Part shown: in pieces, positions 36,021 through 59,867 of the stretch
Layout: the number at the start of each line of letters is the position of its first letter
Numbering within the stretch: position 1 is the first letter of the stretch
DNA from: Takakia lepidozioides
Lineage: Eukaryota; Plantae; Bryophyta
Assembly (NCBI GenBank): GCA_030704615.1
Contig: CM060731.1
Location: 29,326,001-29,390,000 of the forward strand
Direction: 5' to 3'
DNA: 64,000 nt
The notes under the pieces: model-generated
Told to the model about the DNA's origin: nothing
Seen by the model: the letters and a program-made list of their open reading frames with translations, nothing else
Databases searched by the model: none
Made by a program: the position numbers and the translations under genes

Positions 36021-36622
36021 CACTACAGCAAATGGGGGGGGTGGGTTTGCGACGCCAGTCGCGCACCTACGCCCCGCGCGGCGTTGAGCGACGCAATCCC
36101 CCGCTGCGACACCATTGCGACGCCCAGCCGTCGCAAGGTGGCATGAAGGGGGAAATGGGGCCCTGTTGGGACGGATTTTATTTATTTTTTGCAACACCGG
36201 GGTGTCGCAAATCCAATATATATATATGGACGGTGCGACGCCTCGGCGTTGCAAAAGCGTCGTTGAGGGCGTCCTAGCGCCTCTGCGACGCCAGGGGCGT
36301 CGCAACAACATCACCACAGTGGGGGTTTGTTTTTTGTTTTTTGTTTTTTTGGGCTTTGCGGCCTTCAACGTCATAAAAGTGTCGTTGGGGGCGCCCCGCG
36401 CTGGGACGCCAAACGCTGCGACGTCAGGGGGTCGCAATGGTGTTGTAGTCAGCTTAGGTCACCACAAGGACGTCGCTTGGGACATCTGGCTGTGGGGGGT
36501 TGCAACAATAGTGACGACGTTACGGCTAGGGCTGGGGCTGGGCACTAAGGCTATGGAGGTTGCAACTCCCCAACGTCACATGAGGAAATTCCTTAGAAGG
36601 AATTTGAAAGAAATCTTCATGC

Positions 36623-36706
<84 letters not shown>

Positions 36707-37160: not shown

Positions 37161-38156
37161 GCAGCCCCACCACGCAAGATATGCAACCAAGTTGTAACCT
37201 AGTGGTAATGGGCTCATGATACCACTATTGGTATTGGTGTCACAAAGTTGTCCACCTTCCCACTCGAAGGCCGTGGCCCTTCAGGATCAAGTGACACCAT
37301 AATTTACGCTTCCTTGGAGAGGTCTCATATATTATTATTAGGCCAGGCCCCACAGAGGTTGGGTAGCGAGTGAGCATGCTCACGTGAGTACAAGGGCATA
37401 TTTCCCAAATTCCCGGGAAATTTCCACAGGGAAATGAAATTGACGAAATTAACAATTATGCGAAACTAACACATAAAGAACAACTAGCCCCTATACCTGA
37501 TGAACATGTTATCCTATAGACGTGGCTTTTTCTCCATAAGAGGCAGGAGAGTGGGCGGTGAGGCTTCACCTCAACTTTAAATAAATAAGTAAATTAAAAG
37601 TCTCCCATGGATAATTTCACATTGCAAAATTTCGCTTAAGAAGCAATCACATTGTGGCTAAGAGGATGAATAGGTCACTTTTCAAGCCCCCACCCATTCC
37701 TTTTGGACATAGGATTTTTGGGTGATGGGATTTCTCAATACAAAACCCATTGCTTGCTAAGTTTGTGCCCATATCATCAAGTATTTCTCTGTGCGAAATT
37801 CACCGCTGCCTAGTTTGTGCGCATATCACCAAGTAATTCTCAGTGCGAAATTCACCGCTGCTTAGTTTGTGCCCATATCATCAAGTACTTCTCAATGCGA
37901 AATTAACTGCCGCCACTACAGAGGTTTGGGATTTTTGGCTATACTACTGAAGGTTTCGCTTTGCTGAATTGGCATAAATGTATTGTACAAATGCACCAGT
38001 CTTCTATACTCGCTTATGGTTTTATTCCGTTTTGAAAACATATAACTCATATGACCAAGGTTTAAAAACATAAAACTCCCATGACCGTGGGTTGTACTCA
38101 CACGAGCACGAGCGTGCGGACGTGAGCATGCACACGTTGTGCTCGCAGGATACCAA

Positions 38157-38880
38157 TGTCGCGCACCTCACCTCGGTAATTTCCCCTTCATGTCATAGAT
38201 AATCGCTTTGATGCGCGCGCCTAACTCCCAAACTGGCCGTCGGGCCAACTCGGAGCTTCGGCTGCTCACCGGGACATAACGGTCCCCCTTTGCTCCTCCA
38301 CAAGACCCTCGCTCACTTTGGGCCTAGTGTAAATTCCCTTTGGTTGTTGGCAGTCTGGAACAGCTCCCCACACCTTGGTCGTTTTCCGGTTCACAAGCTT
38401 ACTCACTAGTTTTTGGTCACCAACGGGCTTGCACCGTTCTCGGGGTTACTACTCCCTATATATACTTCTGTGACTATCCGCGGGGGTTTCACAAACAACA
38501 CCGTCCTTCTATGGCGAACCACCACGAAGACCCTTGATTCCTAGTGATGAGTCGCGGTGAGTCTTGGCCCACCCACCACGGCCCCAATGGATCGTGATGA
38601 GTCCCAAGACTCCCCACGACTCCTACCACAAGGTCTCCGCCCCATGGTGAGTCCTATGTCACCCCCACTAAGACCCACTAAGCTACCACCACCCCTCGTG
38701 GAACCACCCCCACCGCAACCCGGTGTGCGGGGCTCCACCTAGTGAGCGCCTCCGCCTCCTTGAGTGCCTTGGGCACTCAATGGTGCTTCAGCCCCTATAC
38801 CTATTGTTGCCACTGCCCCCACCATAGAGGCAGCCCCTCTTGTGTCCAGACCCCTGCCCTCAAGGTTAAGGGCCGCGACA
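38157..38880 (-). repeat. 3' LTR of the outer chromovirus
   Basis: Direct repeat of 57056-57781, roughly 5% diverged by eye. Confidence 0.95.
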
Positions 38881-39576
38881 CACTCCCCTACCAACAGGGA
38901 GTCGATATCCTCATCGACTTGTCCATTTTGTAGAAACTAACATCCAAGTTGTGGCGTCCCATGACAAAGAACCAAACCCCCACTTGACTCTACTCTCCAC
39001 TAGCTAGTTTGGCCGACTTCCTCCAAGTCCCGCCCAAGGGTGGAGCCTCTCAAGCTCCACCCAGTGCACTCTTCTTGGCCCACTTCTAGGCCAAGGAACG
39101 ATCCTCCCCGAGGATCGAATCGCCTTACTGCAACAACATTGTTTGCGACCGCTCATGATGGCGCTTTTGGCATCACCTTGAGCAAGGGTTCACCTTGAAC
39201 CCTTTTTTACTAGGAAGATAACCTTGAACCAATCGTGCCCCCCATTCACTACAATTGAGTCCGCCTTGGAATGCTGGCCTGAGGTACCGAAGCCGCACTA
39301 CAACTTCGTCCCGAGGTTACACGATTATAGTACATGAACGAAAGCACGTAGCTTCCGCGTTAGCCTGCACTACAAGATAACCCCCTCGGTAGCGCAGTTA
39401 TAGTACGCGCACACGTCAGGTGCGCACTAACACGTGAACTCCTAAAGAAGGCGCAAATTTCCTTGCCCCTTGGGTGGGAGTCACCAAATTTCGGCACTGC
39501 GCAAATACACGCTTAATCCAATTTACCTCTCCCACTTTTGTAAGCTAGCATGCATTCTACACACTAGCCAACCATA

Positions 39577-40104
39577 TGTCGTGCGCATACATATTGCTAC
39601 ACAACTACATCGCTGTCCAAACCACACCACACATATGTGCACAATAAAGTAGTCTGCCACAATGATAAGAAAACTAGAAAACACACTGCTCACACCAGAA
39701 ACAACATGAATCCATCGCTATCACTCTTTAAAACAGAAGTCGAGCCAGGGGCACCCCAAGCTATGGGGACTCCACCCCACAACAACCTACACTCCCATCA
39801 TAAGCACACTCAAATCTAAACGCATGAAAGAGCTCGGTCGCGCAGGCTCAACTCGAGAGAGATGAGCCGCGCGACTGCCGCTCTCGTGAAGATAAGACGG
39901 ACCAGGTGTCAAACTAAACTTGACACCTGATTTAACACTTGACCTAAATCCAAGTGTTAAATACAAATAACTAGTTTTATTCTAGTTGTTTTCACACTGT
40001 GCTTATTTAACTTGACAGTTGTCGTGCGCATACATATCGCTACACAACTACATCGTTGTCCAAACCACACCACACATATGTGCACAATAAAGTAGTCTGC
40101 CACA
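39577..40104 (-). repeat. Terminal A-B-A' repeat block (85 bp + 355 bp + 85 bp)
   Basis: A and A' differ at 2 sites and B and B' at 3, all transitions. Every unit is TG..CA. Spacers are 'a' (39662) and 'gt' (40018-40019). A PPT-like TAGGGGGGCGAT abuts A' on the minus strand. Confidence 0.95.
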
Positions 40105-40362
40105 ATCGCCCCCCTAGCTGGTGGATAGGTCCCTCTACCTCCAGATAGCTACAAGATGTAATAGCCACAGCCGTACTAAGTCCTCTATCACTGTCCTATT
40201 GTACTCAAACTCTATAGACCAAGGGCCGGGTACAAGAGTAGCCCCATCGTTAGTCGCCGTCTTGCAATCTGTGAACTTGAGCCAAGATCTCGTGTGTTCA
40301 AGGTCTCCTAGTAGCTGGGCCTTGCATTTCTTGTTAGCCTTCCATGGTTGTATCCACTCCCA

Positions 40363-40515
40363 CTATCCAATGCAATGTGGACATAACCAATCCCCATCTG
40401 GAACCATCTCAAGAGGTGGAGTCAAGCATCCCATATGCCAACCTCTAGAGCATCGATCGCACACCAGCATGGTGGCTGCCCCCTTTAGCAAACCCACACA
40501 ACATGCACCTCAAAC
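40363..40515 (-). CDS. PHD finger (C4HC3) at the integrase C-terminus
   Basis: CMLCGFAKG(frameshift in a G run)AATMLVCDRCSRGWHMGCLTPPLEMVPDGDWLCPHCIG*. Confidence 0.9.
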
Positions 40516-40519
40516 CTGC

Positions 40520-43400
40520 AGATACCACTGCCAGGTTTGGGTCAATCCTGCCATCGACATTCGGAAGGTGACATGGCGCACAATTACGCACATGGTCCTT
40601 CCAAGTTATGCCATCCCGACCCTCCAAGACCAAGACGCCTGAGGGCAAGACCTCTCGAACCCTCAAAATAACACGTCCTGCAGTCACATCCAGGGTCGTA
40701 GGAGCAGTCTGCTGCAGATAGACATAATCACCAAGGTTGAATCTCCGAACCCCAGGACGATAGCCCCCACCACGTATGGTAGCATACCTCAACGTATCAC
40801 GGTGTTGTGCAATGGCAAGGTTCTCGAAAGCCATGGGCATGACTCTGTTGAACAACTCTGCACGCTGCTCACATGCACGTGCCCACATGTCCGGATCGTC
40901 AAGGTTAAGAACTGTAGCAGCTTCTCTATGAATGGATGTAGGCAAATCCGGCTCTCGGCCAAAGAGAAGAAAGTATGGTGAGAAGGAGGCAAGTGATGCT
41001 TGCTTGCTGAACCTGTAGCCCATGGCTAACCAGGGTAAACTGAAGGTCCCAATCTCCTAGGTGTCCCTTCTGCAAGCCATACTTGCGCAAACCCCTCTTT
41101 ACTATCTGAACAACTCTCTCTGCCAAGCCATCGGCCTCAGGATGATCCCGAGAAGTGGTGCGGTGGTCTATCAAGGCCTTGTCACACAAAGCCTGAAACT
41201 CCCCCAAGAACTCTCTCCCTTGGTCCGTGAGTACCTCAGCTGGAGCACCGAATCGGCTAAGCACACAATCCAGGAATGCATACGCAGCTCCCTCACTAGC
41301 CTTATCAGGCAATGGAACCAATTCAATCCACTTGGAGAAGTGCTCCACCATCACCAACACGTACTTGTTGTGGCGCATGGTCAGTGGCAACGGCCCTGCG
41401 AAGTCAAGACTCCACCTGTAGCCCAATCCCATGATCGGAAGAGGGTGCAATTGTGGAGTAGGGGCGTTGAATGAAGCACGCACCCTGTCACACACCATGC
41501 ACCTAGCCACAAATTGTTGCACCTCTGTGTGCATACCACGCCACCAATACTGCCTCTGCAGTAGACTATGAGTGCGTCGCACCCCAAAATGCCCCAACTC
41601 CTCATGGGCATGGCGCACTAACCGTCCCGCTGTGTTGGGTGAGGCACAATCCTCACTCGACCATCCTCCCACACTCGGAGCAGGTGTGTCCCCTCCCACC
41701 TGAACCTCTTGGCTTGTTGTAGGATCCGATCCCTCTCCTTGGCAGTCACAGTGGCTGCCGTGTCTCCAGTGCGGAGGTAGTCCAACACAACTGAATCCTC
41801 ATGTATATCTTTGGCGCCACCTTGCTCATTGCTGGCCTCAGGGTCCTCAGACACTTGATCTACAGTCATCCCTGTTGCAGGTCCAACCTGGCCTTCCGCT
41901 GCCAAGATACACAGAAATGCAGATGCATGCCATCCGGGCACCATCTCCTCGTCCGTCTCACCATGCCACCGAGCTCCAGTGTCATCCTGTTGGCTCGTGC
42001 ATGGATTGCGACTCAACCCATATGCATTGCGATTGACCAAACCCGGTCGATGCACCACCTGAAAGTCATACTCTTGAAGGATGAGTGCCCACCGTGCAAG
42101 CTTCCCCGTAAGCTTGTCTGACTCCATCAACCACTTGAGTGGTTGGTGATCCGTGACAAGGGTGAAGAGATTGCCGTATAGATAGCACCTGAAGTGTACC
42201 ACGGCCCACACTGCAGCTAAGCATTCTCCCTCATATGAGCTATACTTAGACTCTGCAGCATTGTTCGAGCGGCTAGCATAAGCCACTACGAACTCTCTTC
42301 CCTCATCATCCACCTGTGTGAGCACCGCTCCAAGCCCCAGCATGCTCCAATCTGTATGCAGCTGAAAAGGACGCCCCCTGATAGGTCGTCTCAAGATGGG
42401 CGCCGAGGTCAACCTCGCCTTGAGCTCTTGAAAAGCTTGTTCTTGCTCATCTTCCCACTGCCACTCCTGGTCCACCTTGGTCAGCTTGGTTAGAGCCTTT
42501 GCAATGGCACTGAATCCCTTAACAAACCGTCTGTAATAGTTTGCTAACCCCATGAAAGCTCAAACTCGGCTCACATCCGTGGGGCGTGGAACCTGTGCAA
42601 TGGACTCTACCTTAGTCTGCTGTACCCCCAATCCTCCAGGATATATCATGTGACCCAGATACTCAATCTGGTTGTGGAAAAACTTGCACTTGCCCGGATG
42701 TAACTTCAATCCGTGCGTCCTTAAACGCTCAAATACCCCTTGAAGGTGTCTCTCATGCTCCTCCACCGTAGCACTAAAGATGATGATGTCATCTATGTAG
42801 CACCGAGCAAACTCCACCCCTGCTAGAATCTGTCCATGACTCTTTGAAACTCAGCGGGAGCGTTTTTAAGCCCAAATGGTAAGAACCGCCACTGGTATAG
42901 GCAATCCTTCCCGTACTCATTGATCCCCCAGAATGCCGTCTTTTGCTTATCCGTCTCCTTGATCGGCAACTGGTGATATCCGGATCGTAAATCCAACGTG
43001 CTAAAGACCTTGGAATGCCCAATGGCATCAAAGATCTCCTCTGGTGTTAGCATGGCATACCTATCGGACTTGGTCTGACGATTTACAGGCCGGTAATCAC
43101 CGCACATACGTCTCTCCGTCCAATTGCCATATACATCCTTCTTAGCTGGCATCACTGTGGCTGAAGCATACTCTCCACCAGAGAGCTCCACCAAACCTGC
43201 CTCCCAGAGATCTTGAGTCCTCATCTGAATCAAAGACCTCTCCATGTCACTGTATCTATAGGGTCTCCGAAAGATTGGCGTGTCAGTGGCCAACTCAATA
43301 CGGATCTCTTGACCCTTCAGTGCTCCCAAGTCCTTCAAACTGAAGGCAAAGCAATTCCTGTAAGCCCTCAGGAACCGCCGTATACGTCGTCTCTCTCCTC
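40520..43400 (-). CDS. Inner element RT, RNase H and DDE integrase (gypsy order), with stops and frameshifts
   Basis: RMCGDYRPVN..FSTLDLRSGYHQ..LPFGLKNAP..CYIDDIIIFS; LHTDWS..YEGECLAAVWAV..LVTDHQPL; HEELGHFG..CMVC; SLDFAGPL..VLTDQGREF..DGLAERVVQ. Confidence 0.93.
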
Positions 43401-43779
43401 CGGTGACAATGGGTCCAATGTCAGGCTCCCAATTGTCCTCCGTAACTGCAACCTTAAGTCCAGTGGGCTTAGAGGTAGAGGACGCGTCCCGTGGTTGCTA
43501 TGCTGCAACCTCTTGAGCAGTACTCCCTTCCCGCTCAGTCAATGACAAGGCCTCATCCTGCCCCATCATCTCATCATTGAGAACCTCCTCATCCCGAGAA
43601 GAATCCCCAACCTCATCCATCACAGCTGCCTTGGCTGCCAACTCCCTCTGAACCTCGAGCACCTCCCACGTGTGCCATGGATGTCTATACCCCGTGGTCC
43701 TCACCAGCTCGCCCCCACTCGCTGCCTGTACCGTCTCGGTAGGCAGAGAGACCGTCAAGGGAAGTGCGCTCCGCACTCT

Positions 43780-44750
43780 ACGTTGCTCAGCCATAGCCAA
43801 GCTGATAATCCAGGTCAAGCAATTGAGATCCATTGCTTGCCCCAACACCTGACGACGTGATGCCTCAGAAAGAGAAGGCACCGCCGTGGTCCCAGTGGAA
43901 AACCCCATAGCCCGCTCTCGCTCGTCGGCATTAGGCTCTACTAACTGTTGCAACTGAGCATCCCACAGGAGGCCAGGTCCACCATCCCGAAAAGCATGGG
44001 ATCCTGGGAAGCTGAGCAGTGTAGGTAATGCTGCTCGTGGTTGACCCACCCTGTTGACCACTGCCAAAGGCGAACGGTCATCGTGTCTCACACGTTGAGA
44101 CTGCCTTCCTGTGTCCAAAATACCATCCACGGTGAGGTGTGTTGGCCGCTGCACCCCATCAAATGCACGCTTGAGCAGTGCGGGTGGCATCAAGTTAGTC
44201 CACCATAGTCGTGGACGATGAGCCCGTGACCCCACTGCAGCTGCATCCAGCAACACTGCTGACCCAAGCCACGACCGGACTTGATGCACACTGGCCATCA
44301 CCCTGGCCCGAGAATCACCCATCAGCGGCACATTCTCCAAGATGTATGCCGGAGATACAGCTTGATGAAGCTGCAAGTGGCGCAAAATCCGCACCATCTC
44401 CCAAAACAAACCCGTCCTCGAGTCTAGCAATCCATTGCCATGCCCGGCTGATGAATGCCCTTGGCAGGGCCAACCTGCCACTACCAGATCAATGGAGCCA
44501 ACCCGCTCCAAATCCTGGCCCCCAGCAACGCAATGTCTGCTGGCAAGGCCTGCTGATATCCACGAACTGCAGACACCGGCAACAACTCAGGGTACTGCTG
44601 CAGCACTGAGCAACATGGCGCAGTGAGACGCGTCGTGCAGTCTCATCCTTCTCCACATACAGGTAACGTCGAACTCGTACACCTGCCTGTAGCACAGCAG
44701 CCAATCCGGTGCTGATCCAGTCAAACAAGTCCAGAAGGCAAATGCCTTCA
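43780..44750 (-). CDS. C5 cytosine DNA methyltransferase domain, DNMT3-like, within the polyprotein (two frameshifts near 44500-44610)
   Basis: Motif I LLDLFDWISTGL; II YLYVE; IV IDLVVAGWPCQG (catalytic PC); VI YILENV; VIII AHRPRLWWTNL; IX ERERAMGF; X RRQVLGQAM, in canonical order. Confidence 0.92.
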
Positions 44751-44911
44751 TCCGGATACTGCCACACAATAGGTGTGGTATCCAATGGTGACAACTGAGG
44801 TGGTCCTGGTGCAATACCCGCACTCTCCTCCTCTCCTGACGGAACAAAAGCCTCTACCCAGGCTTGTTGCACCCGTCGATCAGCAACCTGCTGCAAATCC
44901 TTGCTCGTACC

Positions 44912-47697
44912 CTACAATGGAGTGTGAGCAACCATGGCAGGCAACTCCGCCATACCATGCATGTCATCCTGCTCTGCTGGAGGTGGCACATCCTCTGCAT
45001 GGGCATTGCCTTCCAGCAACTCTCCAGGCCAACTAACTGCAGCTGTAAAGGCGGCTAGTGTTGGCATCTTGCCCCGCTGGGCAGCCGCTATACCCCCAAT
45101 GAATGTCACAGGGAGCTGTGCACGGTGACCATCGCCTGACTGCCATCCAGGCCTATAGGATGCTGACTCCTCCCAAAAGTCCAGGGTGAAGCCCATGGAG
45201 TATAACACTGCCCCACCAACAAGGACATCGTAAGAGACTGCGTCTGTCACAATGGCCTTGGCTCGCATTACTGAGCCATCGATAGGATGATCCAGCTGCA
45301 GTCTAATGGCCAACTGATGCCGTGTCATGCCCTGAGCCTGCTCTGATCCTCCCAGAGATGTCTGTATCTGGAAAGGACAAGGCTCCATATTCGCCTCCAT
45401 GAGGCCCAAACCTGCAATAGCAGCTCTGCCCAACATCAGTGGCTGAGCTCCTGAGTCCAACAAGACCCGCAGTGGCCGGTACTTCTTGCCTGCCAGTCCA
45501 CTCAAAGTGAAAATGCCTCCCTGGTTGTCTAACAAGACAACTCCAGGTGTCACCATGGCGCGCTCAAAGGCTGGCCTAGCTGGCAGCTCCGTCAATCTGG
45601 CAGCTGCAGCTTGCCAGGGCGCTGCCATGGCAGTCTTGACCCTCAAATCTGAGGATCCCTCTGCCACTACACCTTCCACTAACTCCGCAGAAGATGAAGT
45701 GACCTCTCCACTCTCGCAGAGTGTTGCTGCTAATCTGAACACTGCAGCTGGTCTCACTCCCGGCGTCGCAATCATGGTTGCCGAGAACAGTGGGGCTTGA
45801 CACACAGAGGTGGCTGCCCCCAACAACATACCGGCTGCACTAGCCTTGGCAGCAGGTGTCAGTGCTGCACGTGTAGCTCTCCCCAATGGCATAGAAACCT
45901 CCGCCTCGGTAACAATCGGGCGAGAACTAGGTGCCATGGATGGCGTTGACACTGTCTCCGCCAAGGTGAATGACTGAGGCAGCCTCGCTTGACGGCTTGC
46001 CTCCCCACGATGTGGATCCAACTCCACCTCTGCACCTCGTGGCTCAGGAACTCGTGCTGCTCCTCGAGTCACGGCTGCAGCAGACTCCACATGCTCTAGT
46101 GGTAGTGCTGCTTCGCACATGAATCCCATGCCTCCCATATCTCCTCCCTCAGGAGCAGGAGGTGGACCATCCCGCCTGGGAGCCGGTACCGCCTGAGCTA
46201 TAGCCATGGCAGCGAGCCTCTGCTCTAGCTGCTGAAGCCGATTGGCCATGCCTTGGTCAACACCCTGACCTCCGCGTCCTTGGCCATGTGGAGCTTGCCC
46301 TTGGCCTGCACCTCGTGCCCGACCACCTCGTCCTCTTTGGGCTGGTCCACCTCGCCCCCGGCCACCATTGTTCCCTTGGAACTGGCCTGGGCGCAACTCA
46401 GGATGCAAGTCATAACACTGGGCATCTACATGCCCATACTTGCCACAATGCCCACACTGCAACTGTGCAGGCTGTGCTTGTGCCGGCCTTCTGCCATTCT
46501 CTGGGCAATCTCTTTTGACATGGGGTCCTCCACATGTCCAACATATCACCCCTGGTTGCTGTTGGCCTGCAAAAGATGCCACGGGCCTCTGCACCTGAGG
46601 TCCCCTGTAAGCTCCATGGAACTTGGGCTGGGCAACCTTGCCCCCCTGACCACGCTGTTGGGCAGTCCCTTGTGCCTGTGGGCTGACAGCTGTGCCCCGT
46701 GCAGGCATGTCCTTGCCAAATCCAATTGTAACAACTCGCTCCTCCACCATGTTGAGCTCAATCCGCTCAGCCAGCAGAAACACATCTGCTAATGTGGGTT
46801 GGGCTGCTTGTAACAGGGTTGCATCTCGCACCCTTCTCTTGAGCTCCTTGTCCAGAATTCCATACCAAAACTGGATTGCCTGAGCTTCAGTAACCCTTGG
46901 GTCACACTTATCAAGCGCCTCATACGAGTGTACGCCTCTCGCAGGCTCTCACTGGGTTTGCGCTGGAAGTCTTGCAAACTTCGCAGCTTCTCTGTCCGTA
47001 CACCTTGGTAGTTCCTCCGCAACTCCTGGAAGAACTCCACCACCGGGTTGAATCTAGGCACATGTGTTGTAGTCGTGGCAGGAGGAGTAGTAGCACCTTT
47101 TGAACTGGTACCACCTGCAGAAGTACCAGCACTACTTGTTCCACTACTAGTGCTGGCAGTGGGAGATATTGGTACTGATGCAGCTACTGGTCGCGTCGTG
47201 CCTCGAGTAATGGAGACGTAGTCAGGTGACCAATACATCCTCCACTCCTCAATCTCTGCTTCATGTCCTCGCCTGAACTCGTGGTAATCGTCCATAGGCG
47301 GGCCTTCCAAATGCTGGAACAGTCCCTTCCACGCCATGAATGGGGTGAATAGCTGTGGATTGCGCATCTGCTGCAAATCACACCAGCTGTCGAACTCCTG
47401 GATAAAGTCATCCAACTCGATTGTGCCCACAGCTCCAGAGTACCTACGAGGCCCCTTGGTAGCTCCATACATCTCCTCCATGTCGTCCCACAACAATGGC
47501 GAATGAAAGTGCACACCTGTTGATGAAGCCTCCGAGTCTGTGTCTGACTCTACAGTAATTGAGGGTGGCGGTGAAGGTGGTCTGAACCGAATACCTCGTC
47601 TTGTGAACCCACTCTCACTGTTACTGCCTGTAGCCGTACTCCCCTCAAAACCCTTGGGTAACTCCGTAATGACACTCACAATGTGCACCTCCTCCAC
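44912..47697 (-). CDS. Inner element Gag (two zinc knuckles) and aspartic protease; one frameshift near 46830
   Basis: FQRKPSESLREAYTRM (gag core), CWTCGGPHVKRDC, CGHCGKYGHVDAQC, VLLDSGAQPL, YDVLVG. Confidence 0.88.
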
Positions 47698-50339
47698 GTG
47701 ACACTGTAAGGCTCTAGTACTAATCTAATAGTGACACGGGTGGGCACCTGTTGCAGTTTAAGGGTCATATCCCAATGGCTCAGGGCACCTGCACCTGCAT
47801 CCACCGCAAGAACTCATATGGTTGGCTGGTCATCAACCCAGCCTCACCATAGAAGAAACACTGGTGGTCTTGCTGGTCATCACTCCAGCCTCACCACCGA
47901 CAGCATACTCTAGGATTGACCGGTGATCAAATCCGGCCTAATCCCTATGAAAGCAAGCGCCCACACAAAACCAACATGGCGCACAGTCAAGCATGCAGGT
48001 GTTGGGGGGGATCCAAACACAAGAAATCAAAACATCAACACCCATACACCAAAATCCAGCTGCAATGCTGATCCTGCAGAATATCCCAGCCCAAAACCCC
48101 GGACTGACTGGCCTCCACCAAGAGAGGCTTTGGCAACTACGAGTACAAGGTAATGAAAATAGTACAGAGATGGAGGGGAAGAATAGAAGCCCGCCCAAGC
48201 AAGATCTAATCCTGATCTATGCTATCAACTTCCAGACTTCTCTCAAAGTGCCTCGCTCTGCGTGATGGTAAGGTGTAGGAGGTATATCTATGTCCAGAAA
48301 CCTGCCACTAACTTGTCCCAAGCTACAGTAGCTCGCTCTAACCAACCCTCCTCCTCTTTCTGCCAGGTAGAGACAAAGCAATACTCCCCTATCTCCCGCT
48401 CACTGAACACTAAAGAAAACAAGGTAGGGTGTCTGATAGTCTCTCAACTCGAAAGCTTTGAGACGGTTGCGGGTGTCCTCATTGCGAATGACTGCATCTC
48501 CTTCACGCACACAAACATGTCATTGCTGATGAACCCCGCTCGTGGTTGCCTTGTGCAGAGCGTATCCGGCTGCAACCATGTCTGATTGCACAAACTTGTG
48601 TAGCTCCTGCTCCTCTGCTCCAGTACACCACGGCCTTGTGGCTGAACACCTTGGTCCCCGGGGCTGTCTTTGGCTGTGTTCCAAGCCTAGCTTTCACCCA
48701 CTTTGGTGTTTCACCTACAGCTGCAGAACTGCTGGCTCCAACAGAGTTCTGACTGTCCAAGGCGATATTGAGGCCCTCAACGCCAACTACAGCAGTTTAT
48801 TGTCCACTACTAATGCCTGACTCCCAGTATGCAATCAACTCGTCCAACTGTTCTCCACTCAAATCAGTTTGAGTTCCTTGGGAAACATAAATCTTGTCCC
48901 CTTTGGTGCACAGGCTAAGAGAAGAGACCTGCCCTTCAATCACGTCCTCATTTCCCCCAGCCATACAAGGAGTACATCCCCAGATTTATCTCTCATGTAG
49001 ACCAGAACAGGTTCTAGAAACAGGATTGTGGATCTTTCATGGCACACTCACACTCTAAAAATTCCATAGATTTTTAGCAGAGTCCAAAAAACAGAAACCA
49101 AGTCTAAATAGGTAGATTTCCCCTTTCTGCAGCTATCCCCTCAAAAACTGAGTCAAACGGAGCCCATTTGACAAAGATATGACCAACCAGGCTCTTTAAA
49201 CATAACATTTATTTTTATTTTTATTTTTTTAATAAGACAAAACAAATACAAAGAAAACTCTATTGTCTTGGTTCCCTGTTCCCTGGTTCCCTGTTCCTGT
49301 ATATGTGCCCAAAGTTTCAAATTGGTACCAGCGGCTCTTAGGTATTGTTCATATTCGCCTGGCAGCCGTCGTCTCTGTGGCGAACGCAGCCCGCCAGTCT
49401 CCCGCAATCCTGTCAGCTCAACTTGAGCAACACAGATCGTTCTCGTGCACCATGATAGCTCCAAAACTATGGGCGGCCCAGGAAGACGACGTCTCCTCAC
49501 TTAATGAGAACGCTGAGTGCAAAAGGACAATGGTATAAACGGACAGCTGAAAGCGGCTCACAGTAAGGCCGGGGAGGCTATCTTTTGGCAAAGCAATTCA
49601 AACGTTCATGCACAAACTAGTACCAACCCTGGACGAGTTCCCTGGACGCGTCTAGACTCCCACCAAGCATGCTTGCCCTGCTGGAAAGGGCGGACCCGAC
49701 CCATTCACTTCTTCAAGCACAGAAAGAGAAGGAAAATCCCTTGGTGACGAAGGACTTGGTGCTTGAGGTGCCTGAAAACTGCTTCGATGGGCCTCCCTCA
49801 ACATTGGTTTGAGCCTCTTCCTTCTCAGCTGCTGCCTGAGTCTGCAAATGCTGCACGCAGCATGCTCCTAACTCCCACCTTCAATTCTTAGCTTGCATGT
49901 CTTACTTTGTCAGTCTCTTGCTTGTTGCTCCCACTGCTGCTAGGCTGGTGATGCATATCTGCAGAGGACCAGCAGCTCCCTCCCATGTGTGGAGCACCCC
50001 TTCTTGAGTCCATCCCTCATCCATTGTACAGTTCTGATGTCTATATAAGAGGTGGGAAGAGATATGGCTGATTGTTCAGGGATAAACAATGTTGCAATGA
50101 GGCAGCTGCAAGCTGCCAAATCAAAGACTTAGATGGCCATCAGCTCCTTTGGTTGTGCCCTGTTCTTTCATGCTCAAGCTCTCTCTGAATGGTCTCTCCT
50201 GAGCTGACAGTGCCCAACCTGTCGACTTCTCCACATTCTCTTTCACATCTCTACCGTCAGGTTGCTCTACCGAGACATCGCCGCTCCCGCTTCTTCCTGT
50301 CTTAACAACGTCCTCTGCCTCTTCAACCTTCAGTTCTCT

Positions 50340-50625
50340 TCTTCTCTCATGAGAGGTTTGCAATCCAGTGGGTTCTCCTAAATATTTTGCAACTTCCCAT
50401 TGTCATTTCTGCTGGGAACTGCACCATTCTCAGAGATCCATTTGTCTCGAATGCTTTCAAGTAGAGCTCGGCTGGACGGTTCTCATTCTGCACCTTCACA
50501 TACCAGCATTGTAGCGGCTTGCGTGCAAAGCGTAGCCTCATACTCTCATAAGCCTGTCTTGAGACACCAACGTAATATAGAATCTTTTCCTCATAAAAAA
50601 TGGCATACACACTTGCCTTCGAGTC
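50340..50625 (-). pseudogene. Captured fragment of a plastid/cyanobacterial-type GIY-YIG domain gene
   Basis: VYAIFYEEKILYYVGVSRQAYESMRLRFARKPLQCWYVKVQ..RP(frameshift)RALLESIRDKWISENGAVP..ENPLDCKPLM. It resembles cyanobacterial GIY-YIG proteins and the GRXS16 N-terminal domain (recognised from memory). Confidence 0.7.
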
Positions 50626-50820
50626 AGGTTTGCTGCAATCTGCAATCGTACCTCCTCAGTCAAGAATGCTACGAACTCGAGATCACTCAAAATAAAGAAA
50701 GCCACCCACTTGTGCCTGTCGCCTTCGCAGTGCATCTTGCTTCCGCCTATATTCTTCTTGTGCCTGGAATGTGAGCTGCCGTGTTTGTCTTGGTGTTCAT
50801 CGGCTGCTGCCAGTTTTTTA

Positions 50821-51043
50821 CTTCCACGTCCTCCATTATCCGAATTTGTTGTCTGCTTTCCCATCCAGATCCATGTACTCCGCAGCTTTCATCTTCTCCT
50901 TGATTTGCCTTGTGTACTCCAAAGCCTTTGGTGACGGTAGCTTCAGCGACTGCAACAACAGTGACGGCTCTAGCATCGTCATCCTCCAGGCGTTTCAGGG
51001 CACGCTGAATCTTGTGGTCACATTCAATGATATGCTTCTCAAA
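50821..51043 (-). pseudogene. LUC7: Captured exon fragment of a LUC7-family (U1 snRNP) gene
   Basis: FEKHIIECDHKIQRALKRLEDDDARAVTVVAVAE..(frameshift)LEYTRQIKEKMKAAEYMDLDGKADNK matches the plant LUC7 coiled-coil as I recall it (ECDRKI.RAL.RL.EEDAKA..IKEKMKEAD..DLEGK). It is preceded by an AG. Confidence 0.75.
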
Positions 51044-51132
51044 CTAAGCACTACTTACACACAAATAATCTTGCAAGTGCTAACCCTCAACTCCTACCTT
51101 GCACTCACAGGTAAGAGAGCATCTCTCTCGAG

Positions 51133-51487
51133 TGATAAGAAAACTAGAAAACACACTGCTCACACCAGAAACAACATGAATCCATCGCTATTACTCTTTA
51201 AAACAGAAGTCGAGCCAGGGGCACCCCAAGCTATGGGGACTCCACCCCACAACAACCTACACCCCCATCATAAGCACACTCAAATCTAAACGCATGAAGG
51301 AGCTCGGTCGCGCAGGCTCAACTCGAGAGAGATGAGCCGCGCGACTGCCGCTCTCGTGAAGATAAGACGGACCAGGTGTCAAACTAAACTTGACACCTGA
51401 TTTAACACTTGACCTAAATCCAAGTGTTAAATACAAATAACTAGTTTTATTCTAGTTGTTTTCACACTGTGCTTATTTAACTTGACA
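51133..51487 (-). repeat. 5' terminal repeat B'
   Basis: Near-identical to 39663-40017. Confidence 0.95.
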
Positions 51488-51654
51488 CATACCGTGCATC
51501 ACCATTCCAAACAAAATAGGAAGCACAACATTTGGAAACCATTTCATTTATAAACAAAATTTGTACAACACAAGTTTTTGCAATCGGATTCCTGAGCTAG
51601 CTAAGCCGGAGTAAGCATGCATTTCCTCCCCCACGATCTAAGGTTGATGTCCCC

Positions 51655-54600
51655 CTAAACACTTCTTCCACTTTTGAGGTCGCCTTTCGAAGTTGCAACC
51701 GCCTCAGATGCATTTCCCATCTCTGAGGCACCCACCCAAATTACCTCCACTTGATCATAGCCCTTCCATTTTACGAGATACTCCGTTTCTCGATTCTTGA
51801 ACTTCCTCGACTTAAGCACTGTCTCCACCTCGTACTCAGGTTCATTTTCATGATCCAAAAGCACAGGTGGCGGACGCAACACTTGATGCCGATTCGGACG
51901 CGCCTCATCTTTGAAGTAAGGTTTAAAAAAGGAAACGTGGAATACCGGATGCACCTTGTTGTTTGCTGGCAGCTCCAAATTCATACACATCCTCATTCAT
52001 AACCTTCCGGATGCGAAAGGGCCTTGCATACGGAGGTACGAACTTCAGACTCACTTCCGGAGGTAGTCGAAAATTCTTGATGTTCAACCAGACCTCCGTG
52101 CCTGCCTCAAACTTAACTTCCCTCCGTTTTCGATTTGCATGTCGTTCATACCGTTTCCTAGCTTTGGCAATGTTGTACTTTGCGAGCTCCAACAAACGCT
52201 CGCGTTCTTCCAGTACCGCTAGTGCTGCCGGTTCCTCAACGTCCTGGGCGGCCCAACTCGTCGGCACCAGAGCGCATCCAAGTGCTCTACCCAGTTTGAC
52301 TAGTCTGCCGACACATAATTATGCAAAATTTGCTTCACCACGGCATTCACTCTTTCCGTTTGGCCGTCCGTTGTAGGTCGGAAGACGGTGCTCGTCCCCA
52401 TTTTATTCCAAAGTGCCCTCCAAAATTTATTTGTAAACTTTGGGTTGCGGTCTGAGACAATATCCTTAGGGAGTCCATGATGCTTGAAGACGTGGGCGAA
52501 GTAAAATCGCCCCGTCTCTTGCGCCGTTACCGTCTCCTTGGTGGGAATGAAATGGCGCATTTTACTGAACCCACTACAACAGATCGCGGTAGTTATGACT
52601 GCCAAACCGTGGTAGTCATGGTTTTCATAACTTTGACCATGACTGCACCATGTTTTTATATGAAATTGACTTCCCGCAGTCGTTCATACGACTGTAGTCA
52701 TATGAACGACTATCTAAATAGTCGTCTGTATGACTACATGGCTCCGGAATGGGCGGAAGGCTGGTCAACGGCAATTGACCAAATTTAGCTCACCATTCAT
52801 AGTCATTTCCATGACTACAGTGTACATAGATGAGGTTACATGGTCATGATGACTACTGAGGATTTTGTAATTTGGTGTGTTTAATACAATTAAAACACCA
52901 TATGATCATATGAATGACTAATGGGTGTATTGGTTAACAGGTAGTGAACTATAACCCTTATAGTAAAGAGGTTGCAGGTTCAAACTCCTCTAAGTACAAT
53001 CAAATGGATAAGATGGCCCTAGGGTTAGTAGGCGAGCTAGGGATAGCACGTGGTATCCTAGATGGATTGCCACGTGGTTTTTTCATTATTATAAAATGCA
53101 TTACGCCACGTGGCACAATGCGGTGGCATTTGACATATGTTTTTATTTTTTTTATTTTTTTATTTAATCTAATTTTTTAAATCAATTGTGCCTCGCCTGC
53201 GCGGCAGAGTGAGTGGCGGAGTGTGGCGGGCTGCAGTATGGTATATATGACTGCAGTGAGAGATATCACTTGGTTCATATGACTGTAGTTATCCGGACCG
53301 TACCATCATGTACTCATTGTATTGACTTGGTTTGCACGACTTACAGTCATAGAAGTCATATGTACCGTTTATGACTGCAGAATAGTTATATATATAGTCA
53401 TAAATACCGCGATATGTTGTAGTGACCTATCCACCACCACCATGATTGCATCAAATCATTTTGACAGCGGCAAAGAAGTCATGACATCCATCGAGACACT
53501 TTCCCAATACCCATCTGGAATCGACAAGGGTTGTAACAGCCCCGCTTGCTTTTTGTACTCGCTCCGATTTTGTTGGCATGTGGTGCATGTCTTGATATAC
53601 TCCTCGGCCTCCTTCCTCAGTTTGGGCCATAAATACTCTTTCTTCAAGAGTGCCGCGGTGCGCTTGGCTTCGCCGTGGCCCGCAAGCGGGCCATCGTGGC
53701 ATTCTTTCAAGAGACTATCTCTGATCCTTCCCTTCAGCACATAAAGACGCTTTTGCTTGTACCGGAGCAGTCCATTGTGTAAGCGGAACTGCGATTTAAC
53801 CCCCAACCTCAAGTCCTGCATCACGGACTTTGCCATCTCATCCTTCCGGTAAGCCTTCCGGATTTTCCTTCGGAGCGTTGTTTTGTCCCTGGACACTAAC
53901 ATGAGCTGCTATTTTCTACTTAAAGCATCGGCCACCATATTGTCCCGTCCCAGTTTGTACTGGATATCCACGTCGAACACTGCCAAAGTGTCTTGTCACC
54001 TAAGGTGTTTGGGGGACAACTTAGGCTGCGTGGCAAAATACTTCACCGTGACATTGTCTATGAACACCTTCACCGGGTTGGAACCAACATAGTGGCGCCA
54101 AAGCTCAAGGCAATGCACCACCGCCTTCAGTTTTTTTCTCGTGCGCATGCCACCGTCGCTCCACTTCATTCAGTTTCTTACTTTCGTAAGCCACTGGACG
54201 TCCATCCTGCATGAGCACATCCCCAATTGCGAAGTCTGATGCATCTGTATGAATCTCAAATGGACGGTCGAACTCCGGGATTTTCAGGACTAGAGCTTCC
54301 GCCATCCGCTGCTTCAACTCGGCAAAAGCTTGGCCACAAAAGGTGTTCCATACCCATATCTTGGACTTACACAGAAGGTCTGACAACGGCCCCGCGATCT
54401 TGGCGAAATTTCACAGATACTTTCGGTAAATAAGAAGCGAGTCCTAGGAATGATCACACTCCCGGGACCGAAGTCGGAGGCTCCCAGTCCAAGATTGCCA
54501 TCACCTTTTTGTCATCCATTTTGATCCCATCCTATGTAATCACATAACCTAGGAACTCCACTTTTGTGACCCCGAATTCGCACTTTGAAGCTTTGGCATA

Positions 54601-57000
54601 CAACTTCTCTTCCCGGGAACACCCTTTTTAGGTGCTCCAGGTGCTCTTTCTTTGTTTTCGAGTACCCCAGGATGTCGTCGATGTACACGATCACAAAGTC
54701 ATCCAACCACTCCTGGAAAAGGTTGTTCATTAGCGTGCTAAAGGTCGTGGATGTGTTGGTGAGCCCAAAATGCATCACCAAAAAGATATGATGCACGATC
54801 ACACGATCATATTAACCATATCTTGTCGTGCACGCGGTCTTTTCCTCATCTCTTTCCGCCACTCGGATTTGATGGTAACCTGAGCACAAATCGATCCGGC
54901 TGAAATACTTTGCTCCTGCCAACCGATCGAAGAGGTCGTCGATCCTTGGAAAAGGGTACCGATTTTTTATAGTCACCTTATTCAGAGCCCTGTAATCGAC
55001 ACACATCCGCATCGTCCCATCTTTTTTGTCTGCGAATAGCACCGGGGTTCCGTAAGGTGACTTACTCGGCCGGATGTACCCCTTTGATATTAGATCGTTG
55101 AGTTGGGCATTCAGCTCGACCAACTCTCTGTGGCTCAACCGGTACGACACGTTGGCAGGCGGCTCCGATCCCAGTATCACCTCTATTTTGTGGTCAACTC
55201 CTCTTTGCAGTGGCAAGCCGCTTGGTAAATCCTCCGGCATCACATCCTGGTATTTCTCCAGGATCCCCTTGATCCAATTTGGGCTAGGCTCCCTATCGAC
55301 TTCTTCTTCCACTTGTCTTACGTAAAGCAAAAACTGGGGCTCGTGTGGCTCCTCCACTGCCTACTCATTTGCTGTCAACATGTTTAATCGCGAGTCCCAC
55401 TCGGTTGGGCGTTTCCGATACCTGTAAAACTTCGCCACCATTCCCACACGGTAGCGTGATTATTCTCTTGCGGCCATCTATGACCGCTCCGGATTTGCTC
55501 AAAAATGTCATCCCCAAAATGAGATCCACTCCATCGATATCGCAAATGGTGAAGTTTTCACGTCCCTCCCAACCCCCGAGATGAAGAGGAACATTGAACA
55601 CCAACCTCGTCGCCAGTTGTGGTTAACTTTTGGCATAACGCACTTCAATAGAGGCCCCCACATCAAGACGGAAGCCCCAGCTTCCTGCCGTTTGACGGGG
55701 TAGGTGGTGTTGTCTATGAAGCGAGTGTACCAACAACGACACGTTAGTTCTGGAAATTATCCCACTTACGAACATTAACTGACTCCCTTTACGCAAGGGG
55801 CCAGTCTCCTGATACAACTCACAAGCGTAGTTGTCTACCTTGCAAGTCTTGGCGACTACTGCCTCTACCAAGCGACTGATGGAATCTTCAGACAGCTCCG
55901 TGGTCGCCTGATCATGTTCAATTGTCGGGGTTTCGCGCACTTCTTGGCCATGTGCCCAGACTCCCCGCAATTAAAGCACACTCCATCGAAGGTCACCTTC
56001 TGTCCGCCATAAGCCGCCGCACCTAATTTTCCTTTCGAAGCACCGAGTGCCGCTTTGATGTGTGAATGCCCTCCCTTCGATTTCCATGTGTCATTGTTGC
56101 CACGTGGCCTATCCTACTTTTTTTCTGGTCGGAAGGAGTCACCCTCGGCTCGCCGGGCCTTCTTGTGGTTCAGCTCCGTACGGCCTTGTCTTTCGCCCCT
56201 AGGAACATCCGAGAAACATTCAGCCCTTTCAATTGCCACATTCAAAGTCTTAGGTGGCTTCTCCTCCAACTTCCGCCTGGCCCATGGGGCCAGTCCCGCC
56301 ACAAAGTTGAAGACCATTTCTGGTCCGCCATATCGGCGACTTCGAGCAACAACACATTGAAAGCCTGAACATATCCCCGAATGTCATCTGTTTGCTTCAA
56401 ATTCCTCATTTTGTCTCGGGCGAGCCATGATGCGTTGAGGGGCACAAATTGTCTTTTCATAAGTTCCTTGAACCCACTCCAGCTCAAGGTTTCTGGGTTT
56501 AGACCTTGGTCATGAAGGCGTTTCTGCCACCATTGTTGAGCATAGCCCCTCAAATAGGTGGGAGCCACTTCCACCTGATCCTCGTCACTCAACTTGGTCG
56601 CCCGGAAGTACTGCTCCAGCTCCAAAAACCAGGTGTTGAGTGCCTTCCGATTTCGAATGTCCTCGAAGGTGCCGGGTTCCTTAGGCTTCACCTTAAACTT
56701 TGCCTTAGTGGAAGTGACATTAGCCGCCCTTATCACGTCTTTCAACGTCCCGCCAAACTGCGCCAACAACCCTTCCCAAAAGGCTACTGGCATGGGAGGC
56801 ATCTGTTGGTCTGTCGAAGCCTCCGGGAAGTCCTTGGGCTCCGACTCTGCAGATTCCTCCCGTTCTTGAACGGCCTCGCTTTCAGAAGCATAAATCGCCT
56901 TTTTCAATTGCCGCTTCGGTGACACGTCGCCCCCACCGGGCTCACCAGGATCATCATCTTTCGGGTCGTTCCGTTTTCGCTTTGTCTTGCCCGACCCCAT
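51655..57000 (-). pseudogene. gag-pol of the outer chromovirus (Gag, CCHC knuckle, PR, RT, RNase H, integrase, chromodomain), frameshifted
   Basis: KPKEPGTFE..WFLELEQYF; CFNCGESGHMAKKC; [19 protein letters not shown]; VYIDDIL; HTDASDFAIG; ECHDGPLAGH..CTTCQ; VSDRNPKF; EYEVETVLKSR..EYLVKWKGY (chromodomain, ~51700-51840). Confidence 0.92.
52572..53424. mobile_element. Non-autonomous CACTA element (853 bp) inserted in the chromovirus integrase
   Basis: TIR CACTACAACAGATCGCGGTA / CACTACAACATATCGCGGTA; 3-bp TSD ACC; ATGACT subterminal repeats. Integrase reading resumes on both sides (MVVVD|..FSKMRHFIP). Confidence 0.95.
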
Positions 57001-57041
57001 GATGAGGCCGATCTCAAGGACGATCGCGTACTGAACTCTAA

Positions 57042-57053
57042 GCTCTGATACCA
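57042..57053 (-). promoter_or_regulatory. Primer-binding site for tRNA-iMet
   Basis: TGGTATCAGAGC on the minus strand, 2 nt from the 5' LTR. Confidence 0.95.
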
Positions 57054-57055
57054 AG

Positions 57056-57781
57056 TGTCGCGCACCTCACCTCGGTAAGCTCCCGTTCATGTCATAGATA
57101 TTCGCTTTGATATGCGCGCCTAACTCCCAAACTGGCCGCCGGGCCAACTCGAAGCTTCGGCTGCTCACCGGGACATAACGGTCCCCCTTTGCTCCTCCAC
57201 AAGACCCTCGCTCACTTTGGGCCTAGTGGAAATTCCCTTTGGTTGTTGACAGTCCGAAACAGCTCCCCATACCTTGGTCGCTTTCCAGCTCACAAGCTTA
57301 CTCACTAGTTTCTGGTCACCAACGGGCTTGCACTGTTCTCGGGGTTACTACTCCATATATATAGTTCTGTGACTGTCCGCGGGGGTTTCACAATCAACAC
57401 CGTCCTTTTTATGGCGAATCACCACGAAGACCCTTGACTCCCGGTGATGAGTCGCGGTGAGTCTTGGCCCACTCACCACGGCCCCAATGGACCGTGATGA
57501 GTCCCAAGACTCCCCACGACTCCCACCACAAGGTCTCCGCCCCATGGTGAGTCCTATGCCACCCCCACTAAGACCCACTAAGCTACCACCACCCCTCGTG
57601 GAACCACCCCCACCGCAACCCGGTGTGCGGGGCTCCACCTAGTGAGCGCCTCCGCCTCCTTGAGTGCCTTGGGCGCTCAAGGGTGCTTCAGCCCCCGTAC
57701 CTATTGTTGTCACTGCCCCCACCACAGGGGGAGCCCCTCTTGTGTCTCGACCCCCTGCCCTCAAGGCGAAGGGCCGCGACA
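57056..57781 (-). repeat. 5' LTR of the outer chromovirus
   Basis: Direct repeat of 38157-38880; adjacent to the PBS. Confidence 0.95.
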
Positions 57782-58437: not shown

Positions 58438-59867
58438 GTGGTTTGCTCCCTTTTACCCGGTCTTCACTCCCCTCTCTCCCCTCCCACTATGGGGGGGGGG
58501 GGGGGGGTGGTAACTTGTGAGCACAGTGTGTGCATGCTCACGTGAGCACGCTCACGCTCGCATAAGCACAACCCACGGTCATGGGAGTTTTATGTTTTCA
58601 ATCCTCGGTCACATGAGTTATATGTTTAGAATAAACCATAAGCGGGTGTAGAGGACTGGTGCATTTGTATAGTACATTTGCGCCAATTTAGCAAGGCGAA
58701 ACCTGTAGCCAAAAACTCTAAACCTCAAGTGGCGGAAGTGAATTTCACATTGTGAAATACTTGCTGATATGGCCACAAACTAAGCAGTGGTGAATTTCAC
58801 ACTGAGAAATACTTGGTGATATGGGCACAAACTAGGCAGTGGTGAATTTCGCACATAGGAATACTTGGTGATTTGGGCACAAACTAAGCAAGTGGTGGGT
58901 TTTGCATTGAGAAATCCCATCACCCAAAAATCTACATCCAAAAGGAATGGGTGGGGGCTTGAAAAGTAACCTATTCATCATTTTAGCCACAATGTGATTG
59001 CTTCTCAGGCGTAATTTCGCGAAAGTATCCATGTGAGATTTTTATTTATTTATTTATTTTAAAAGCAAGGGAAAGGACCTTAAAGTTGAGGTGAAGCCTC
59101 ACCGCCCACTCTCCCGCCTCTTATGGAGAAAAAGCCACGCCTATAGGGTAAACATGTTCATCGGGTATAGGGGCTACTTGCTCTTTATGTGTTAGTTTTG
59201 CATAATTGTTAATTTCGTCAATTTCATTTCGTTGTGGAAATTTCCCGGGAATTCGAATATGCCCTTGTGCTCACGTGAGCATGCTCACTCCCTACCCAAC
59301 ATCCACTATGGGGAGCAATAATGGGAGAATGTTTGGGAACATGGTCCTGAAGATGGGGAGCATGAGGAGGGAACAATAGGTGTGGAGCGCTCCCCACATT
59401 TCTAATGCGGGATGAGATTTGATTGACAGTATGCTGGAGCCTGCAATGCCCCCACCAGCACAAACGCTTGCCTTGAACTGGTTGGGTAAGCGTAGTATTT
59501 GCCATAAGAACATTTCAATTTATTAATATTTTACGATAGTACATGTAAAATATCATTATGGTAATAGCTAATGAAATGTCAAAATTCTTAATATTGAATT
59601 TTTATAGCTGTATATATTTTTGAATCGTCAAAAATATAGATATATTAATATATTATGATTACACATCAATAAATTCAAACAAATTTATATTGAAAATAAA
59701 TTGGATATCAACATCGTCAATACAGCCAAAATCTTAATGTAAAAAGGTAAAACAATGCATAAAATGGAAAATCTTAGGAGCAGGGCATATTGAATCTTCC
59801 CAACCCTCTCTTGAGAGTGACATGGGCTGAAGGAAGTGACAGTGGGTTACATAGAGGGAGTATAAAC

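Follow-up and report, generated by a model that had tools for sequence, protein, structure and literature searches.

A Ty3/Gypsy-type retrotransposon of Takakia lepidozioides with split repeats, a covarying predicted self-primer and insertion ends that appear to lie inside its LTR

The window analyzed here, 64,000 nt of Takakia lepidozioides contig CM060731.1 (assembly GCA_030704615.1, positions 29,326,001 to 29,390,000), contains a retrotransposon of 11,911 nt on the minus strand (39577-51487) with split repeats in the arrangement A...B-A-B. It sits in the 3' untranslated part of a second, chromovirus-like element, the LTRs of which are 93.7% identical. No target duplication is evident at the ends of this host element (38149 and 57781), in which an interruption near 52.7-53.4 kb breaks the integrase region. 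The host element lies between the two arms of an inverted pair of ~800 nt with 84% identity (37355-38155 and 58508-59303), each arm holding three 52-nt tandem units, and a long (AT)n microsatellite is found at 36610-36705. Along the minus strand the inner element reads A1, primer-binding site (PBS), an insert, gag, protease, C5 methylase, reverse transcriptase (RT), RNase H, DDE integrase, PHD finger, purine tract, B1, the dinucleotide AC, A2 and B2. The features are as follows.

38149-57781, minus strand: host chromovirus-like element, with LTRs at 38149-38880 and 57047-57781, a TGG-type PBS and a chromodomain
51488-51491, plus strand: right copy of the target-site duplication CATA, with which the empty-site joints agree
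51133-51487, minus strand: repeat A1 (B' of the initial annotation), 355 nt, its TGTC being the 5' end of the inserted element
49200-51040, minus strand: low-depth insert between PBS and gag, with GIY-YIG-like broken frames and a poly(A)-like tract near 49213-49235
44915-47724, minus strand: gag and protease region, frameshift-broken (Retrotrans_gag, E 0.007; protease by way of the relative L082)
43501-44911, minus strand: C5 cytosine DNA methylase domain, frameshift-broken (PF00145, E 1.6e-12)
43498-43500, minus strand: TAG in frame between methylase and RT, with CAA CCA after it
41621-43497, minus strand: reverse transcriptase and RNase H, frameshifted
40929-41624, minus strand: DDE integrase (zinc finger and core)
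40366-40509, minus strand: PHD finger after the integrase (PF00628, E 1.7e-10)
40107-40119, minus strand: polypurine tract, directly before repeat B1
40020-40106, minus strand: repeat B1, 87 nt, ending in GACA
40014-40023, minus strand: internal att-like junction GACA-AC-TGTC, formed by B1, a 2-nt spacer and A2
39663-40017, minus strand: repeat A2 (B of the initial annotation), with 3 differences from A1 in 355
39577-39663, minus strand: repeat B2, ending in GACA at the 3' end of the inserted element, with 2 differences from B1
39573-39576, plus strand: left copy of the target-site duplication CATA, matching the right copy

The inserted unit (39577-51487) starts with TGTC, ends with GACA and is flanked by a 4-bp target duplication. 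Run contigs join 39572 directly to 51488, with four letters that fit either side (11 contigs of X3 and 4 of X1, the two runs being one sample), and these joints come from host-element copies in which the site is empty. A reading of the two copies of A as a plain LTR pair was given up: no target duplication surrounds the pair and no purine tract precedes A2. An 87-bp target duplication was likewise rejected. At the A2/B2 joint (39663), the PBS border meets the purine-tract border. Judged from where the PBS and the purine tract lie, the normal LTR would be B plus A, and the inserted copies would end inside it. Within repeat A, at 51372-51432, there are two perfect-looking hairpins, the first of which reuses the TGTCAA end motif on both arms.

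The element has the gag-PR-RT-RNase H-DDE integrase order, the purine tract and the short target duplication of Ty3/Gypsy elements. A DDE (rve) integrase is present where DIRS-type elements carry a tyrosine recombinase, and a scan of window frames and of 4 of the 16 frames listed for L082, among them both long open frames of that relative, found no tyrosine recombinase. The frames of the window element gave no match to a Chromo domain either. Because the coding frames are broken, the window copy is probably dead. Besides the window, 37 collected loci gave methylase-like matches. A stop at the same place between methylase and RT is found in four of the five relatives spanning the position: L082 has TAG followed by CAA TCA (3489-3491), L027, L022 and L036 have a stop followed by Gln, and in L078 it is absent. 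The TAG-CAA-CCA of the window fits the leaky-stop motif UAG-CAR-YYA; with a leaky TAG, the methylase would be made in excess over RT. The insert at 49200-51040 has GIY-YIG-like features, scored in the atlas with very high confidence, and over 50334-50818 it matches at ~94% a contig of X8, a run guessed to be RNA. No homologs of it were found among longer proteins. The insert is likely a captured piece of a host mRNA.

An integrase search gave 297 matches at E ≤1e-40 among 932 candidates, and the 120 matches listed include proteins of Calypogeia and Riccia (both ~85%) and of Sphagnum, Klebsormidium, Haematococcus and Tetrabaena, many of them with a PHD finger. No relative was found by protein among viral contigs, and none of 37 pattern matches contained an integrase match. 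The initial annotation had compared the priming with that of Tf1/sushi-type elements, from which the element departs in having a PHD finger and a DNA methylase and no chromodomain at the integrase C-terminus. Its RT is 32% identical to that of the neighboring chromovirus, and in a quick RT tree (47 rows, midpoint root, with no Tf1/sushi/Tcn1 reference) the family stands apart from 17 chromovirus-like RTs (SH-aLRT 87). In this tree the window element groups with Klebsormidium and chlorophyte homologs.

With a 27-sequence alignment as the query, 80 metagenome loci (the best 80 of at least 419 confirmed) and three genome-contig loci were collected. These loci are not independent, several being the same insertion in different assemblies, and they were merged by flank at a loose threshold that also merged L080 with L066/L067; copy forms in the window organism were judged from run contigs only. 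The 52 3' ends comprise 39 distinct ones, of which 18 read purine tract-B-flank, 18 read A-B-flank and three are unclear. Twelve elements have both ends, eight of the form A...B and four of the form A...B-A-B, and their target duplications are exact over 4 bp in eight, match at 3/4 in three and at 2/4 in one. The B/A junction is GACA-NN-TGTC or a decayed form of it, with the spacers AC (12), GC (11) and other (4), counted without de-duplication. The A/B joint falls where the PBS border meets the purine-tract border, L028 having an insert of ~20 nt there. The distance between B1 and B2 is 0.062 within elements versus 0.082-0.084 between them (13 loci, three of them one insertion). A possible solo A-B unit is L014 (179-582), where B comes after a decayed A and a coding region is missing.

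As the window element lies within another retrotransposon and contains a likely captured insert, its A...B-A-B arrangement might be regarded as an isolated result of nesting, recombination or misassembly. This is largely refuted, and we consider it very improbable, given the 18 distinct B-A-B 3' ends in the collected loci, the 4-bp duplications around whole units, the empty-site joints, the GC form of the junction in organism A (run X2) and the identical layout stated for Klebsormidium (PMC5890265, Fig. 4 legend). No B stands before any of the 15 distinct PBS-bearing 5' ends. Outside these 15, contigs L027, L078 and L082 have purine tract, B, A and PBS in a row, the order of an ordinary LTR, and L082 has a terminal overlap of 127 nt. 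We take these contigs for one-LTR circles or for assemblies that collapsed, but an ordinary LTR would give the same picture.

The 5' end of the element contains the two features on which our interpretation is built.

51321-51334, minus strand: predicted self-primer, 13-14 nt, the predicted RNA 5' end, with a CA initiator (A at 51333)
51120-51133, minus strand: primer-binding site, complementary to the self-primer, its first base being the terminal A of repeat A1

As first noticed in the initial annotation, CATCTCTCTCGAGT (51120-51133) is an exact 14-nt reverse complement of 51321-51334. On the coding (minus) strand, the repeat (51487-51133) terminates in ...TTATCA and is followed by CTCGAGAGAGATG, so the reported lack of a TGG tRNA PBS after this repeat holds as well. 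Base 51133 is shared: the repeat ends with it, as the A of the terminal CA, and the 14-mer begins with it, so that 13 of the 14 PBS bases lie outside the repeat. In 20,000 dinucleotide shuffles of the repeat, no complement of at least 13 nt was obtained, the best being 12 nt, in two shuffles. A scan of the whole window at every fifth position on both strands found complements of at least 12 nt in 25 position bins (100 nt by strand, mirror matches counted apart), two of which are the PBS/self-primer site. Since complements of this length occur elsewhere in the window, it is the exact position directly at the repeat end that matters. The neighboring chromovirus-like element with its TGG-type site has a self-complement of only 6 nt. 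No tRNA genes were found in the 64-kb window and no Rfam matches at 49000-51700.

Compensatory changes in both 14-mers across relatives, proposed in the initial annotation as a check on the pairing, were seen across five sequence types (the window, the L019 type, L027, L082 and L078). Over 13 positions, 65 of 65 pairs are Watson-Crick and the geometry of site and PBS is identical in all five types. Ten of the 13 pairing positions vary; positions 1-3 are invariant, the primer ending in AGT and the PBS beginning at the terminal A. When the site of one type is set against the PBS of another, 4-11 of 13 positions pair. L027 and L082 are closely related and differ by one compensated swap. These two types and L078 came from a blind search for complements of at least 11 nt, which returned many chance pairs, and had complements of 16 nt (L027), 13 nt (L082) and 16 nt (L078) at the repeat/PBS position. 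Their perfect pairing is thus partly selected, but the place of their sites is fixed independently by the upstream junction. Of 15 related 5' repeats of the L019 type, 12 have the best PBS partner where it is expected (9-14 of 14 Watson-Crick pairs); in L007, L012 and L071 the best partner lies at another place. A 5' repeat with a PBS was not found among the collected loci for the L070/L075 type, L022, L081 or L083.

A variant at 51125 (~11% of the summed depth in two runs) breaks one pair, and no compensating change of the partner was found among 40 of 55 rows. Three runs of organism A contain diverged contigs whose alignment starts at 51119/51120; past this point, one loose-end row differs. 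A hairpin in repeat A of L027 (8820-8856), L082 (7228-7255) and the L019 type has the primer site as its loop and 3' arm, with a stem of 12 bp in L027 and L082; such a hairpin would hide the 3' copy of the site.

A host RNA (a half tRNA, a tRNA fragment or a small RNA) could also serve as the primer, in which case the self-complement would have another role, for instance in packaging or in holding the ends close to each other as the internal complementary region of DIRS1 does. Half-tRNA priming does occur in plant copia elements (PMC6317226). Against this, the PBS differs between the five types but in each of them matches the type's own repeat, a TGG start being absent from all five, the complement begins exactly at the end of A that forms the A/B joint, and none of the five PBS types pairs over 8 nt with the 15 tRNA genes of the collected loci, a weak comparison as these are not host tRNAs. 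We therefore consider a host RNA primer quite unlikely, and Tf1-like self-priming of the window element very probable on the evidence of its sequence and those of its relatives.

The site also has marks of a transcription start. The initiator-like pyrimidine context claimed earlier is present as CTC-A-TCTC, and all five types have a CA near the primer 3' end, at a distance of 14 nt in the L019 type and of 13 nt in the other four. Three of them (the L019 type, L027 and L082) have a TATA-like box 29 nt before the A of this CA. In the window there is no canonical TATA but only a TATC, at 31 nt, and L078 is without any such box. When an RNA starting at 51333 was folded, its 5' end paired with the PBS (z -3.6), and in an RNA starting at 51400 the site was buried in a local hairpin. 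In six of six cases, the pairing probability was 0.8-1.0 for starts 14-17 nt from the primer end, and in five of six it was at most 0.13 with 60-80 nt more 5' sequence; the exception is L019, in which the pairing is retained with long 5' extensions. Contigs of runs guessed to be RNA have no bearing on expression (those of X8 are without cover at 51172-51595, and X9 has one contig). The earlier proposal that the RNA primes itself from a start near 51333, a predicted position, is thus well supported by the covariation in five types, the CA/TATA spacing and the folding, which frees the site only in RNAs with a start close to it.

The same 14-mer has a second copy in the 3' repeat A2 (39851-39864), and covariation alone cannot separate the two copies. 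The primer could accordingly be the 3' end of the RNA at this second copy, folding back onto the PBS with no need for 5' cleavage. Such an origin is improbable, since the spacing of CA and TATA points to a start at the 5' edge of the site and since, with upstream sequence as in A2, the site is buried in a predicted hairpin in five of six cases.

Self-priming from the RNA 5' end alone is not rare. Tf1 primes with 11 bases that are cut by RNase H (PMC7175516), Tf1-type self-priming was proposed for Tj1 (PMC4600332), and it was predicted for 12% of plant LTR elements, in Tcn1 and TAR, with a PBS complementary over at least 10 nt to a site in the 5' LTR and no tRNA site as the criterion (PMC6317226). 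The PBS of the window element has such a complement in the 5' repeat and no tRNA site, as in Tf1/sushi elements including Tcn1. The element differs from Tf1/Tf2 and Tj1 in a primer of 13-14 nt, not 11, and from the Tf1/sushi group in that its inserted ends lie inside the reverse-transcription LTR and not at the outer ends of two full LTRs. Self-priming appears here in a lineage without a chromodomain. What is new is the covarying self-primer that fixes the cDNA ends, together with the census of forms: as the self-primer fixes where reverse transcription begins and ends, the inserted ends are not the cDNA ends.

From these features we propose how the element could replicate. Transcription would start from the CA at ~51333 and the RNA 5' end would fold onto the PBS, RNase H would cut after ...AGU as in Tf1, and minus-strand DNA would copy the remainder of A and then jump to A2. 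We hold this first step to be highly probable. With such a PBS and purine tract, standard LTR reverse transcription yields a linear cDNA that carries B+spacer+A at each end. An ordinary linear cDNA with an LTR of B, spacer and A is accordingly the likely product here too, its plus strand being primed at the purine tract. In the third step, which is plausible and which we favor with some reserve, the integrase would ignore the linear ends and cut after CA on both strands of the internal junction; both products would have CA-3' ends and 5' overhangs of 2 nt, a geometry like that of retroviral ends after processing. The form A...B would arise when a one-LTR circle is opened at the junction. For A...B-A-B, the A end would be joined to the B start, either in a two-LTR circle or through end repair once the element is inserted, and the 5' junction would be used. 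This second form would be the master form because only its RNA holds the second A needed for strand transfer.

A symmetric two-LTR circle was rejected as a complete account. It predicts A-B-A...B equally often, and this form was seen in 0 of 15 cases (P ~3e-5). Either the 5' junction would be preferred, or A-B-A...B would collapse to A...B through its two adjacent A copies during repair. The 18:18 split of 3' ends fits such a collapse without showing it, and the collapse itself is speculation.

The lack of A-B-A...B (0/15) is also accounted for if self-priming holds and no junction is cut: on an RNA extending through B2, RT or a DIRS/Ngaro-like template switch would produce a cDNA with A at its start and B at its end, which the integrase would insert; the layout is that of the split direct repeats of PAT/Ngaro elements (PMC6681497). 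Synthesis from the PBS, however, begins with A and cannot include B2, the purine tract is at the start of B and not of A, and the fixed 2-nt spacer in a palindrome-like junction is left unexplained, so we regard this route as unlikely. Taken as a whole, our account of a self-priming Gypsy element, whose copies end at GACA-NN-TGTC inside the LTR and whose integrase is predicted to cut there, seems to us the probable one.

The closest published description is that of KnitGypsy-Dnmt3 of Klebsormidium nitens, in which DIRS-like repeats (A-coding-B-A-B) accompany Gypsy domains and no mechanism is given in the available text (de Mendoza et al. 2018, PMC5890265). It shares with the window element a Gypsy polyprotein with a C5 methylase (a PF00145-level match here) and the A-coding-B-A-B repeats (PMC5890265), and Klebsormidium proteins are among the integrase homologs, the methylase-bearing P0071 being on the same side of the RT tree. 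The description, in its available text, is without a primer site, purine tract, target duplication, junction, A...B form or PHD finger (PMC5890265), and KnitGypsy is not mentioned in the text of three of its supplement files. In contrast to KnitGypsy-Dnmt3, close homologs of the window element were named from liverworts (~85% identity) and Sphagnum. In the accessible part of 10.64898/2026.05.21.726589, Gypsy-DNMT3 is only named. Gypsy-7a_cRei of Chlamydomonas is active in the laboratory, bears a PHD finger and has 'LTR subparts' in a figure legend (PMC9940879); the likeness is by description only. Phygy and Selgy are similar as non-seed-plant Gypsy elements without a chromodomain and with a 4-bp duplication. 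They have tRNA-Trp and tRNA-Ala primer sites and no extra polyprotein domain (PMC6317226), unlike the window element, which lacks such sites and has extra domains. In the literature covered, incomplete for most subscription papers and Repbase, self-priming, an internal junction and two forms were not found for a Gypsy-Dnmt3-like clade.

The recombinase elements PAT, Ngaro and VIPER have split direct repeats A1...B1-A2-B2 (PMC6681497). The window element has the same repeats, but it differs in having a DDE integrase with no recombinase match, a 4-bp duplication and an LTR-type PBS and purine tract. As to the cutting of junctions, the DDE enzymes of IS3/IS911 cut end-to-end circle junctions into integration-ready ends. 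Foamy-virus integrase cuts a palindromic 2-LTR circle junction (PMC1180852). In both systems the junction arises from true DNA ends; here, in contrast, it would be templated inside the LTR and apparently be the normal route. On balance, we slightly favor the view that the integrase attachment sites of a green-lineage LTR clade have shifted away from the cDNA ends and now lie at a templated junction within the LTR, with a DDE integrase routinely using a circle-type junction and with DIRS-like split repeats that arose by convergence. If this is true, integration from a circle-type junction is routine in a widespread eukaryotic element, the split repeats of Klebsormidium are explained too, and the old question of whether LTR circles are productive integration intermediates becomes directly testable.

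Such elements defeat LTR finders that expect a target duplication around a repeat pair. Because these finders fail, and because half of the distinct 3' ends are without a second repeat pair, the clade is probably under-annotated in bryophytes and algae. Three of the collected loci (L081, L082 and L083) lie in contigs filed under prokaryotic genome bins, which is probably due to binning contamination.
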